DNA from: a virus
Length of the DNA: 64,000 nucleotides
Virus record (IMG/VR): IMGVR_UViG_3300046694_000196
Coordinates: 32,001 to 96,000 of that record
Strand: one strand, 5' to 3'
The position numbers and the translations under genes were made by a program. Positions within the stretch are counted from its first letter, which is position 1, and every line of letters begins with the position of its first letter. Below are positions 9,368 to 54,487 of the stretch, piece by piece. The notes beneath the pieces were generated by a model, which made no database searches, was not told the origin of the DNA, and saw only the letters and a list, made by a program, of their open reading frames with translations.

Positions 9368-9391
9368 CATTTCTCGACATCCGTGTAGAAT
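9363..9391 (+). promoter_or_regulatory. early promoter
   Basis: GTTGAC-N17-TAGAAT. Confidence 0.75.
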
Positions 9392-50520: not shown

Positions 50521-50837
50521 GATCAAGCGGGAAGCCGCTTGTCAACGAGAAATGACTCTCGACGCAGGTAGCCACAGGAAATATTATAGTGGTGAGGGGC
50601 GCCGGGAACGTACGCAGGGCCCGTCCTGGTACCGGAGACGTCCGGTCGCACAAACCAGGCATTTCTCGACTCTATACGCCTGCAGACCTCTCCGGACAGG
50701 AGAGTAGCTAACTCCGGGTCTAAGTGAAGCAAGAGACAACGCGTCATGTCTGGGTTCTACTCCCAGATGCTGATAACAGCGCGGCGCCATGCTGCCTTGT
50801 CTCCCTAGAACACGACGGTCTGCAGGCGTATAGAGTC
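50521..50837 (+). ncRNA. large structured non-coding RNA candidate
   Basis: 9-bp stem 50546-54/50660-68; perfect 21-bp stem 50668-88/50817-37; multiple internal hairpins. Confidence 0.6.
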
Positions 50838-50839
50838 AA

Positions 50840-50921
50840 GCACCCTTATCGTCCCCGCCTTCTAAGCGGTCGTTAACGACGTAGACGGAGTAGGCTGGTT
50901 CGAGTCCAGCAGGGTGCTCCA
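50840..50921 (+). ncRNA. atypical tRNA-Arg(UCU)-like RNA
   Basis: GCACCCT/AGGGTGC acceptor, TTCGAGT T-arm, CCA; CCGC-CTTCTAA-GCGG hairpin inside the D-stem. Confidence 0.75.
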
Positions 50922-50924
50922 CTA

Positions 50925-51030
50925 TTTCCGCTGGTGAGACTGCCGCGTACGGGCAAGTCACCGGTCTCGGGGCATAGAGGCCGGCTGCAGAGGCAGTCGC
51001 TGGTGCGAGTCCAGCCCGTTAAGGAAACCA
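50925..51030 (+). ncRNA. tRNA-like multi-hairpin RNA ending in T-arm and CCA
   Basis: TTTCC/GGAAA-CCA ends, GCTGG-TGCGAGT-CCAGC arm, three more hairpins. Confidence 0.5.
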
Positions 51031-51119
51031 TTTCTGATCGTGACGGGGAGCGCGCTAACGCCCTCGTCGCCTTTGCGCAGCAGGTCGCGGACTCCTTTAG
51101 CGGGGAGCCCTAGACCTGA

Positions 51120-51188
51120 GTCGGAATCGTCCAACTTGGATAGGACACTGCCGTCTAGGTGGAAACCAGGTTCAAATCCTGACCGACG
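51120..51188 (+). pseudogene. degenerate tRNA
   Basis: D-arm GTCC/GGAC and TTCAAAT T-loop present; 5-nt anticodon loop, weak acceptor, no CCA. Confidence 0.45.
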
Positions 51189-51201
51189 TCTGCAACAATT
51201 C

Positions 51202-51283
51202 GCGGCTGTGGTGTAACGGTAGCCACGCAAGGTCGAGAGCCTTGTTCTTCGGAGTGAGAGTTCGAGTCTCTCCAGCCGCACCA
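51202..51283 (+). tRNA. tRNA-Leu(GAG)
   Basis: GCGGCTG/CAGCCGC, CAAGG-TCGAGAG-CCTTG, variable arm, CCA. Confidence 0.88.
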
Positions 51284-51288
51284 AGTTT

Positions 51289-51375
51289 GATCGTGTCACC
51301 TTAGCGGCGATAGGTTCCGGCTCTTAACCGGATGATGAAAGTCCACCGTGGGTTCGAGTCCCACCGCGATCACCA
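51289..51375 (+). tRNA. tRNA-Lys(CTT) with long variable region
   Basis: GATCGTG/CGCGATC, TCCGG-CTCTTAA-CCGGA, CCA. Confidence 0.85.
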
Positions 51376-51398
51376 AATCCCTACACAATGGAGAAATC

Positions 51399-51920
51399 AT
51401 GACCACGAACTGGAATTCACCGATCGCTGAAGTGAACCCGACCGAGGGCAGGAAAGACTTCCTCCTGAACATCGGCGACGTGGTGCTGTACAACTACCTC
51501 GGGTACAAGCGGTACGACTCGTTCGACAAGTCGCGGTCCCTCGAAGTCATCGAGGTGTCTACGGGCCCCACGGGGAACGTCATCTTCCGCGGAAAGCAAC
51601 AGAAGAACGTCCGGTACAACACGAACGGCACAGCTCCAGCCGGGTGGCTCGAGACGCCGTTCCTGTCTTCGAAGTACTTCCGAGTGGTCACTCCCGCAGT
51701 GCCCGTAGAGTCGTTGAAGGGCTCACCTCAGCCCCTCCCGGTCGACACCCTGATCGTCGACGCGACCACCCTGAAGGTGCTGAAGGCCTGCAACAACATC
51801 AACCAGAAGAGTGAAGTCGAGGCCATCCTCCGCAGGGACATGAACCAGAAGCTGTTCGTGTTCGCGCGAGTCGCAGAAGTGTCGGTCGGCGAGCTGCCCG
51901 TGAAGTGGGACTGGAAATGA
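51399..51920 (+). CDS. hypothetical protein
   Basis: GGAG RBS; 173 aa. Confidence 0.75.
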   Translation: MTTNWNSPIAEVNPTEGRKDFLLNIGDVVLYNYLGYKRYDSFDKSRSLEVIEVSTGPTGNVIFRGKQQKNVRYNTNGTAPAGWLETPFLSSKYFRVVTPAVPVESLKGSPQPLPVDTLIVDATTLKVLKACNNINQKSEVEAILRRDMNQKLFVFARVAEVSVGELPVKWDWK

Positions 51921-52156
51921 GCCTCTTCCTCATACGTGACGTGCTGTCCGGGGAGTACCTGGACCAGAACACCGTCATGTTCGTGGCGGACCCTGAGAAG
52001 GCCCGCGCGAAGTTCAACTCTCGCCAAGCCGCCGAGAAGAAGATCGCGTTCGTAGTCAAGGAGAACACACGGTTCAACAGGTACTACGACTACGAGCGAA
52101 ACCCGGTGCAGTTCGAGCCCGTAGAATTCAGACTGGTGGAGGTGACTCATGAGTGA
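51917..52156 (+). CDS. hypothetical protein
   Basis: 79 aa. Confidence 0.7.
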   Translation: MSLFLIRDVLSGEYLDQNTVMFVADPEKARAKFNSRQAAEKKIAFVVKENTRFNRYYDYERNPVQFEPVEFRLVEVTHE

Positions 52157-52568
52157 GCTGCTCAAGACTATCAAGGCCGACTTCCTGGCAGCGCGCAAGG
52201 CGCGAGAAGCCTCGACCGCCTCTTTCCTCTCGGGGCTCGTGGGCACTATCGAGCAGGAGTTCGCGGGGAGAGCCACGGGCGACGCGACCGACGAGAAAGT
52301 CATCGCGGTCATCAAGCAGTTCCTCAAGAAGAACGAGGCGCTGCTGGCCATCGAGAACCTGCCGCAAAACGCGATCGACATGGTTGAGTTCGAGACCAGG
52401 ATCATCGAGAAGTACCTGCCGGTCCAGATGACCGAGGACAAGATACGCGAGGTCTTTACTGAGCTCGACGCGTCCAACCTGGGCCTCATGATGAAGCACC
52501 TCAAGGAGAACTTCGCGGGTCTCTACGACGGAGCACTGGCGTCGAAGGTCGCAAGGGAGTTCCTGTGA
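52149..52568 (+). CDS. GatB/YqeY domain protein
   Basis: IKADFLAARKAR..., E..IIEKYLPVQMTEDKI, LGLMMKHLK...YDGALAS. Confidence 0.88.
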   Translation: MSELLKTIKADFLAARKAREASTASFLSGLVGTIEQEFAGRATGDATDEKVIAVIKQFLKKNEALLAIENLPQNAIDMVEFETRIIEKYLPVQMTEDKIREVFTELDASNLGLMMKHLKENFAGLYDGALASKVAREFL

Positions 52569-52750
52569 AAGACACGTGGTTCACTATGAGGCCCGTGGGC
52601 GACGTCTTCATCGTCGAGTCACACGTCAGAAAGTTCTCGGCATTCGAGAAATGTGAGACGACTTACAAGAACTACGTCGGTACTTTCGCGAACAGGCTAG
52701 AAGCAGCCGAGGCTATAGACGCAGTGAAGAAACGCCTCGGCATCGGTTGA
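52565..52750 (+). CDS. hypothetical protein
   Basis: 61 aa. Confidence 0.6.
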   Translation: MKDTWFTMRPVGDVFIVESHVRKFSAFEKCETTYKNYVGTFANRLEAAEAIDAVKKRLGIG

Positions 52751-52775
52751 CGTCTCGGTGCTTTCTCGATAAATA
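52747..52775 (+). promoter_or_regulatory. early/late promoter upstream of tRNA-like pair
   Basis: TTGACG 52747-52 and GATAAATA 52768-75. Confidence 0.6.
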
Positions 52776-52784
52776 AATTTCTAT

Positions 52785-52866
52785 GCACATGTATCCGCCG
52801 GGCTTGCGAAGCTCGAGTCAGGTAACTGGATGGAAGATATGGGTTCGAGTCCCATCATGTGCTCCA
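52785..52866 (+). ncRNA. atypical tRNA-Arg(GCG)-like RNA
   Basis: GCACATG/CATGTGC, ATGGG-TTCGAGT-CCCAT, CCA; CGGGC-TTGCGAA-GCTCG hairpin inside ATCCG/TGGAT. Confidence 0.75.
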
Positions 52867-52867
52867 T

Positions 52868-52959
52868 GCACCCGTATCCCGCTGCGCTTCGAACGCAGAC
52901 AAAGGTAATCGGAAGTGGCCGCGAGGCTGATGCAGGTTCGAGTCCTGTCGGGTGCTCCA
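52868..52959 (+). ncRNA. atypical tRNA-Arg(UCG)-like RNA
   Basis: GCACCCG/CGGGTGC, GCAGG-TTCGAGT-CCTGT, CCA; CTGCG-CTTCGAA-CGCAG hairpin inside TCC/GGA. Confidence 0.75.
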
Positions 52960-54400: not shown

Positions 54401-54487
54401 GGAAGGTGAAGCAGCCAGGTGGCTGCGTCGGTTTGCTAAACCTGACGGACCTCACGGTCTGCGTTTCGAGTACGCCGCCTTCCTCCA
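54401..54487 (+). tRNA. tRNA-Ser(GCT)
   Basis: GGAAGGT/GCCTTCC, loop TTGCTAA, long variable arm, CCA. Confidence 0.85.

Follow-up and report, generated by a model that had tools for sequence, protein, structure and literature searches.

What are three CCA-ending, transfer RNA (tRNA)-like elements that carry arginine anticodons in a phage genome, and could they be working tRNAs? The elements, E1 (50840..50921), E2 (52785..52866) and E3 (52868..52959), lie on the plus strand of a 64,000-nucleotide (nt) stretch of viral DNA, hereafter the window, that comprises bases 32001-96000 of the 126,343-base pair (bp) IMG/VR record IMGVR_UViG_3300046694_000196. The record has a G+C content of 58.8% and a CheckV completeness estimate of 73%, and the nearest match of its class II ribonucleotide reductase is a Rhizobium phage version (63% identity). 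Outside organelles, tRNA segments are regarded as always following the cloverleaf order. Our analysis suggests that E1-E3 depart from this order: they are probably functional, arginine-accepting, decoding tRNAs in which positions 10-21 have moved to the variable region.

An original prediction had described these elements as a rearranged tRNA class under selection, and much of that description stands. The sequence bears out the three coordinate pairs, the arginine anticodons (UCU in E1, GCG in E2 and UCG in E3) and the shared parts, namely 7-bp acceptor stems starting with GCAC, U73 followed by CCA, and a GGTTCGAGTCC T arm. The view of a selected class is upheld by many homologs with arginine anticodons and four covarying helices. 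ARAGORN counts 24 tRNAs in the genome, and several more noncanonical tRNAs occur besides. The sole canonical tRNA-Arg of the whole genome called by this program (anticodon CCU, L257:1956-2032) sits outside the window, which holds none, again as predicted.

Standard tools were expected to miss the elements, and default-mode ARAGORN passes over all three. In mitochondrial mode it calls E1 as ‘Val(gac)’ through a wrong hairpin; intron mode and a relaxed threshold gave spurious calls only. A search with the Rfam tRNA model RF00005 at gathering filters missed all three elements. With lax filters only, the same model matches E2 (31.8 bits) and E3 (35.5 bits; gathering threshold 29 bits) in alignments that delete 15 model positions, corresponding to the D arm, and insert 20-30 nt in the variable region. 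The only Rfam match of E1 is to the selenocysteine tRNA (tRNA-Sec) model, at 28.3 bits under a model cutoff of 47. This 28-bit match was rejected together with weak matches to Plastid-ycf2 (minus strand) and Twister-sister (20 bits, E 1.1), all of them far under the cutoffs.

Parts of the three elements

Most hallmarks of a canonical tRNA are present in E1-E3: a 7-bp acceptor stem, a discriminator base, a GTTCRANYC-type T loop, and an anticodon arm with U33 and R37. The anticodon arm is a canonical 5-bp stem with a 7-nt loop (C/U32, U33, A37, A38), the outermost pair being a C/U mismatch in E1. CCA is encoded in each element, as it is in most canonical tRNAs of the same phage. The D hairpin (10-13/22-25 closing the D-loop) that a canonical tRNA places between position 9 and the anticodon arm is absent. 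The gap between A9 and the anticodon stem is only 5 nt in all three elements, and a D hairpin at that place is therefore ruled out.

Instead, E1-E3 show the trait of a wider family described below. U8, A9 and U/A10 are followed by C11-N-N, which pairs with N-N-G directly 5′ of T-A-R to form a stem that we call S1. The strand after S1 has the form T-A-R-(0-3 nt)-G-G-A and reads TAGACGGA in E1, TAACTGGA in E2 and TAATCGGA in E3. In each element the 5′ and 3′ acceptor strands are colinear and paired within one gene of 82-92 nt, which is not the arrangement of a permuted or split tRNA gene.

E1, read from the sequence as a rewired tRNA-Arg(UCU), has its acceptor strands at 50840-50846 (5′) and 50911-50917 (3′). 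Between them follow U8 A9 U10 (50847-50849), the 5′ strand of S1 (50850-50853), the anticodon arm (50854-50870, anticodon 50861-50863), a linker (50871-50877) and the 3′ strand of S1 (50878-50881), with CGTC and GACG forming four pairs. The D-loop-like strand (50882-50893), which includes the G18 G19 A20 equivalents (50887-50889), leads into the T arm (50894-50910), and U73 (50918) and CCA (50919-50921) complete the element.

E2, read likewise as a rewired tRNA-Arg(GCG), has acceptor strands at 52785-52791 and 52856-52862. Its S1 pairs C11-G38 and C12-G37 (52795-52796 with 52821-52822) enclose an anticodon arm at 52799-52815 (anticodon 52806-52808). The TAACTGGA motif (52823-52830) is followed by an 8-nt connector (52831-52838), the T arm (52839-52855), U73 (52863) and CCA (52864-52866). 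One nucleotide separates E2 from E3, a rewired tRNA-Arg(UCG) with an extra arm by the same reading. S1 of E3 likewise consists of C11-G38 and C12-G37 (52878-52879 with 52904-52905), the anticodon arm spans 52882-52898 (anticodon 52889-52891) and the TAATCGGA motif lies at 52906-52913. An extra hairpin with a GNRA loop (52917-52928) precedes the T arm (52932-52948), the 3′ acceptor strand (52949-52955), U73 (52956) and CCA (52957-52959).

A phage-borne family with a proposed relocated D-loop strand

Loci were gathered from IMG/VR by two IUPAC patterns, the second looser and with the anticodon left free; the figures from these scans give the fraction of matches that parse as family members and are not a census. 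Among IMG/VR contigs, the first pattern picked up orthologs of E1 and E3. The looser pattern in IMG/VR, together with earlier loci, gave at least 64 distinct sequences in which the acceptor, anticodon and T stems all pair. Among the matches listed, 61 of 117 IMG/VR loci and 4 of 120 prokaryote-genome loci passed the same pattern and parse.

The original prediction had proposed a covariance-model search of phage sequences, and this search recovers the family together with its helix covariation. A model built from 15 family sequences (R1) returned at least 76 matches at 37 bits or more, at least 72 of them distinct, and scored E1 at 92.0 bits. A rebuilt model (R2) scores E1 at 76.1, E2 at 64.8 and E3 at 55.4 bits, with the next best match in the genome at 29.6 bits; E1 was in the training sets of R1 and R2, E2 in that of R2, and E3 in neither. 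Family members score at least 45 bits with R2 and canonical tRNAs at most 30.

Cultured carriers include Escherichia phage ManiMatter_Bas94 (PQ850617.1, near 59.4 kb) and Stenotrophomonas phage DLP_6, in both of which the site is unannotated, and Streptomyces phage Yaboi. The Yaboi record (NC_048730.1) annotates 86686-86764 as tRNA-Val(aac), which by our reading is a rewired tRNA-Arg(UCU) (L272:1194-1271, 79.5 bits with R2); its sister phages leave the site unannotated. The DLP_6 gene, found by BLAST, is a relative of E3 with anticodon ACG. No match to E2 was found by BLAST against cultured phages, and the GCG type is so far found only in this phage and one relative. The extra hairpin 5′ of the T arm defines the E3 subtype, and its pairing is kept with differing sequences in DLP_6, L261, L263, L266 and L267.

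Family genes lie within tRNA clusters; the median number of canonical tRNAs per locus is five. A canonical tRNA of the same anticodon occurs at the same locus for 3 of 74 members. ARAGORN in default mode calls six of the 74, all with wrong ends, and GenBank records leave out or misname family genes. The rewired tRNAs probably form a large, phage-borne and mostly unannotated RNA class.

A syntenic relative (L010, a 136-kilobase contig) carries the same three genes. Identity to this relative is 82% for E1, 85% for E2-E3, 88% for a tRNA-Lys and 66-78% for neighbouring open reading frames (ORFs). Stem changes between the orthologs are compensatory. In a syntenic relative the E2 ortholog lies at L007:3326-3402, and in the E3 ortholog (L007:3407-3493) four of the five anticodon-stem pairs are altered on both sides.

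RNAalifold, run on the family alignment, returned four helices unprompted: the acceptor stem, a 3-bp S1, the anticodon stem and the T stem. The acceptor and T helices are 99% paired across the family, with covariation. S1 consists of C11-N12-N13 paired with three bases that end in G just before an invariant T-A-R, and it encloses the anticodon arm and a linker of 3-8 nt. A MAFFT alignment selected blind to S1 shows this stem 94% paired. Its second pair (12:44) occurs as GC (32), UA (15), CG (14) and AU (2), and there the whole-structure covariation score reaches 0.92, against 0.20 for shuffled and 0.10-0.15 for slid controls. A count anchored on the motif agrees and finds the three pairs formed in 71, 70 and 55 of 72 sequences, with a change of the first pair from C-G to U-A in three.

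These results modify the prediction of a D-like stem around the anticodon hairpin: the anticodon arm is indeed enclosed, and the register that had been proposed is wrong. The TCC/GGA-type D stem (T10-C11-N12 with G-G-A), which the sequences of E2 and E3 would allow, does not covary and was rejected: none of its pairs changes on both sides, and its third pair fails to form in 34 of 63 cells. Variants with A10 disrupt the TCC/GGA helix yet improve an extension of S1. S1 ends in the G of ‘GTAA’, and the TAA..GGA motif therefore comes after the stem. In the comparative data, S1 is the conserved stem.

The strand after S1 runs T, A14, R15, 0-3 bases, G18 G19 N20, then 4-9 bases or an extra hairpin, then A-U and the T stem. 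Neither the GG motif nor the consensus T loop varies in the family, so the losses of G18 G19 and T loop that mark metazoan-type D-armless tRNAs are not seen. When the position-15 equivalent is A, the base before the T stem is U in all 67 cases. When it is G, the partner is C (three cases) or G (two, including E1) and never U. The 15/48 equivalents thus appear to follow the Levitt-pair rule. Anticodon loops are of the kind typical for arginine, with C32 U33 in 65 and A37 A38 in 69 of 72 members.

Position 20 varies with the anticodon. GGA stands at the G18 G19 N20 equivalent in 56 of 60 members with arginine anticodons; the four others are mostly parsing slips, with one real GGC. Among the 11 members with CAU, UAU or GAU anticodons, nine parse as GGU and none as GGA, and all 11 have A73. 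Examples that combine the U20 equivalent with A73 are L021:11809-11885, L028:513-589, L019:1732-1808 and L074:2956-3032. Just C35 and A20 distinguish Arg(UCU) members from near-identical Ile(UAU) members. These Ile/Met-type members look like an identity switch inside the rewired design. According to a review (PMC9976931, Table 1), the bacterial identity set for Arg consists of A20, C35 and U/G36, and the set for Ile includes U20 and A73 among others. The family pattern matches the sets of both the bacterial arginyl-tRNA synthetase (ArgRS) and the isoleucyl-tRNA synthetase (IleRS), and E1-E3 all have the A20 equivalent, C35 and U/G36 of the ArgRS set. Taken together, the relocated motif appears to behave like D-loop positions 14-20.

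Probable decoding tRNAs and the alternatives

All six arginine codons are in use: across 135 long ORFs of the phage, their frequencies range from 6.1 to 22.0 per thousand. Together with CCU, the anticodons UCU, GCG and UCG are predicted to read all six, and inosine would not be needed. E1-E3 supply exactly the arginine anticodons that are missing from an otherwise near-complete phage tRNA set. That they complete the set fits ordinary decoding tRNAs with an unusual core. As elongator tRNA-Arg isoacceptors, E1 (UCU) would read AGR, E2 (GCG) CGY and E3 (UCG) CGR.

We propose that segment 10-21, the 5′ D-stem strand and the D-loop, has shifted from between positions 9 and 22 to between positions 44 and 45. 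The chain would then run through the 5′ acceptor strand, U8-A9, the 22-25 equivalent, 26, the anticodon arm and a short linker. It would continue through the 10-13 equivalent, A14 R15 .. G18 G19 A20, bases ending in 48, the T arm, the 3′ acceptor strand, N73 and CCA. The D-stem strands would still pair with each other, as S1, and now do so around the anticodon arm. Consistent with these assignments, the 5′ strand of S1 leads directly into the anticodon stem, like 22-25 and 26 in a normal tRNA, and the 3′ strand leads directly into A14, like positions 10-13.

The contacts of the tRNA core that we considered are three triples (9-12-23, 10-25-45 and 13-22-46), together with the contact 8-14-21 and the pair 15-48. 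At each new junction (9-22, 44-10 and 21-45/48) the chain would join residues that are already adjacent in the canonical L-shape, and an ordinary core and elbow, and with them an ordinary L-shape, are therefore plausible. The predicted fold includes U8-A14, 15-48 and G18/G19-T-loop contacts and a stack of S1 on the anticodon stem. RNase P and 3′ processing would release CCA-ended RNAs, given the intact acceptor/T helix, the single nucleotide between E2 and E3 and the encoded CCA. The ArgRS of the host would charge the RNAs through A20, C35 and U/G36, and the charged RNAs would decode on the ribosome.

Several points weigh against this proposal. The main structural weakness is the weak S1 energetics of E2 and E3, which have two Watson-Crick pairs each in this stem. 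The proposed fold of E1 (-27.2 kcal/mol) lies close to its minimum free energy (MFE, -28.6), whereas the values are -19.2 against -26.4 kcal/mol for E2 and -16.2 against -31.7 for E3. Single-sequence folding z-scores of the elements are unremarkable, and such folding, which does not recover the model, was rejected as structural support; the predicted structure rests on comparative evidence. The isosteric three-dimensional core is a proposal drawn from textbook tRNA tertiary contacts. The association counts given above are not phylogenetically independent, and the G15 cases stem from about four lineages. Finally, E1-E3 have U73, whereas E. coli ArgRS prefers A/G73. U73 is, all the same, also listed for bacteria in the review table (PMC9976931).

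Three other roles had been suggested in the original prediction, and the data support none of them. The first is that of decoys, tRNA-shaped RNAs that soak up colicin D-type nucleases of arginine anticodons, or ArgRS, thereby shielding the tRNA-Arg of host or phage, with no part in translation. The canonical anticodon arms could be nuclease substrates, phage tRNAs are a known answer to defences that target tRNAs (PMC11555353), and DLP_6 has a canonical tRNA-Arg(ACG) adjoining its rewired ACG copy. Yet such adjoining pairs are the exception, as the 3 of 74 members with a canonical twin at the same locus attest, and E1-E3 are the sole source of their anticodons in this phage. A nuclease decoy would have no need of A20, an intact acceptor-CCA end, the T loop or 15/48 pairing, all of which are conserved, and no decoy would need the change to U20 and A73 that accompanies Ile-type anticodons. 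We regard this role as improbable.

A role as arginine donors for non-ribosomal chemistry (transferases, peptides or the cell wall), with the altered core keeping the RNAs off the ribosome, would fit the retained ArgRS identity elements; the altered core might, speculatively, affect binding to EF-Tu or the ribosome. The gene context holds no pointer to such a role. No transferase gene is linked, and Pfam matches on seven neighbouring ORFs are to YqeY and DUF4031 only. A donor would not need the decoding-type anticodon stem and loop (C32 U33 ... A37 A38) that are kept, or anticodons that span all arginine boxes, and an Ile/Met subfamily exists beside the arginine members. We think a donor role very improbable.

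Re-splicing is the third role: the elements would be precursors that become usable once cut and re-ligated to the canonical order of segments. In algae and archaea, permuted and split tRNA genes do mature by RNA processing, and some phages encode RNA repair enzymes. In E1-E3, however, the acceptor ends are normally ordered, so that circularisation cannot restore a cloverleaf and the RNA would have to be cut twice and ligated twice. No conserved bulge-helix-bulge or intron-like splicing motif is present, and S1 covaries as a helix in the encoded gene order. The carriers also differ widely, infecting E. coli, Streptomyces or Stenotrophomonas, and no processing gene common to them was seen. Re-ligation is hardly credible on these grounds. 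The last alternative, decaying pseudogenes or chance tRNA-like sequence, could draw on the misses by ARAGORN and Rfam at default settings and on several other odd tRNA-like stretches in the same cluster, but it is effectively ruled out by covariation, with more than 70 distinct homologs, 94-99% pairing, abundant compensatory change in four helices and conservation relative to the syntenic contig above that of neighbouring ORFs.

If E1-E3 are charged and decode, as we think likely, a second chain topology builds a working tRNA core that is served by unmodified bacterial enzymes and is widespread in phages. For tRNA folding and evolution, such tRNAs would be a case of a segment transposed in nature without loss of identity elements or tertiary pairs. 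Arg and Ile tRNAs of phages would have been missed or misnamed, biasing analyses of codon usage and host independence. The layout would also offer a possible new scaffold for tRNA engineering and bear on phage-host conflict over tRNA pools. Members in cultured E. coli and Streptomyces phages make these ideas directly testable.

It is a tentative suggestion, and we hold it loosely, that the rewiring is adaptive and not a frozen accident: the L-shape seen by ArgRS or IleRS, EF-Tu and the ribosome would be kept while the D-arm surface is removed or altered. The altered surface might, as a similarly doubtful step, be the one used by host tRNA-targeting defences or by tRNA-decay or modification systems. 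Phage Arg and Ile tRNAs for rare AGR, AUA and CGN codons could then survive an attack on host tRNAs, and the family would provide a natural, portable and topologically distinct tRNA scaffold.

Neighbouring features

Late-promoter motifs had been predicted upstream of both loci. The octamer TTTCTCGA does lie 5′ of each on the plus strand, at 50662..50669 (171 nt upstream of E1) and 52762..52769 (16 nt upstream of E2). Its 15 occurrences in the window exceed the 2.9 expected. A sigma-70 scan, by contrast, found no site upstream of E2, and the only strong sigma-70-like site near E2 and E3 is downstream of E3. The remaining plus-strand octamers start at 9370, 18932, 45874 and 49386, and nine are on the minus strand. 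Those at 9370 and 18932 directly follow TTGACA/TTTACA, 17 nt before TAGAAT/TATACT, and so lie in the spacer of sigma-70-like TTGACA/TTTACA-N17-TAnAnT sites. TTTCTCGA may be a phage-specific promoter element.

Directly upstream of E1, a 171-nt element on the plus strand (50668-50838) is closed by a perfect 21-bp inverted repeat and folds at -84.8 kcal/mol (z -7.4), with no Rfam match. The element occurs once in the genome, is missing from the syntenic relative L010 and may be an insertion; the inverted repeat was rejected as part of the tRNA gene. Two more tRNA-like stretches lie on the plus strand between E1 and a tRNA-Leu. The first (50922-51031) has a GCTGG/CCAGC T-arm-like hairpin and a ...GGAAACCA end, and the second (51138-51197) has normal-looking D and T arms and an odd anticodon region. 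Neither was called by any tool; 51138-51284 is 71% conserved in L010.

Within the tRNA cluster, between E1 and E2, 52149-52568 (plus strand) encodes a free-standing YqeY-like protein (Pfam PF09424, 54.4 bits). The related GatB tail domain binds tRNA. As a general companion of the family this gene was rejected, with homologs only in L007, L010 and L113 among 143 loci.

Further tRNA-like genes occur in the same genome. An 87-nt gene at 54401-54487 (plus strand) ends in CCA, and its fold resembles tRNA-Sec or an allo-tRNA: an 8-bp acceptor, a 6-bp D stem with a 4-nt loop, a GCU anticodon (Ser AGY), a 5-bp extra arm and a 4-bp T stem (MFE -41.3 kcal/mol, z -4.3). It is missed by ARAGORN in default mode and by Rfam (even at E 10), and ARAGORN in mitochondrial mode calls part of it. 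Outside the window, L257:14204-14277 (genome 126204-126277) is a canonical-looking, amber-suppressor-like tRNA with anticodon CUA (RF00005, 68 bits); DLP_6 likewise has an annotated tRNA-Sup-CTA. Also outside the window, L257:2724-2803 (genome 114724-114803) is a noncanonical tRNA-like gene (R2, 29.6 bits) in which the acceptor stem, T arm and CCA are good and the D and anticodon region is irregular.

Comparison with known systems

The rewired layout was not found described in the full-text literature that we searched, which included reviews of noncanonical tRNAs and of identity elements and a recent preprint. New here are three isoacceptors that complete the arginine set of one phage, the rare GCG type, the extra-arm subtype, a direct comparison with the pairing originally proposed and the 15/48 covariation.

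Canonical class I tRNA-Arg (RF00005; the phage’s own tRNA-Arg(CCU) and E. coli argU) shares most parts with E1-E3: the 7-bp acceptor with N73 and CCA, the 5-bp T stem with a GTTCGAGTCC-type loop, and the 5-bp anticodon stem with a C32 U33 NCK A37 A38 loop. The U8, A14, R15/Y48, G18 G19 and A20 equivalents and the setting in a tRNA cluster are also the same. The canonical form has a D hairpin, whereas in E1-E3 segment 10-21 sits 3′ of the anticodon arm, which branches from the D-stem equivalent and gives a non-cloverleaf structure.

Circularly permuted tRNA genes of Cyanidioschyzon merolae place the 3′ half before the 5′ half, and a circular intermediate restores the cloverleaf. They resemble the phage family in their non-canonical segment order. 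In the phage family, however, the ends are in their normal places, the transposed segment is internal and the mature form apparently keeps the rearranged order.

Metazoan mitochondrial D-armless tRNAs, for example mt-tRNA-Ser(AGY), likewise have no D hairpin and are atypical to gene finders; they have lost the D-loop, the G18 G19/T-loop contacts and the consensus T loop and need adapted partner proteins (PMC7609411). The phage family keeps all of these elements in relocated form and must suit ordinary bacterial enzymes. tRNA-Sec and the allo-tRNAs (8/5, 8/4 and 9/3) are further functional non-standard geometries, found mostly by metagenome mining. In these forms (PMC7609411), helix lengths are altered while cloverleaf order and Ser identity are kept, whereas E1-E3 keep the 7/5 geometry and alter the order.

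The aminoacylatable tRNA-like structures of plant RNA viruses (PMC9976931) also present an L-shaped mimic that is recognised by synthetases and built through a non-cloverleaf topology. They form the 3′ termini of genomic RNAs, have a pseudoknotted acceptor and do not decode, whereas each of E1-E3 is a gene of its own in which acceptor stem and anticodon loop are genuine.

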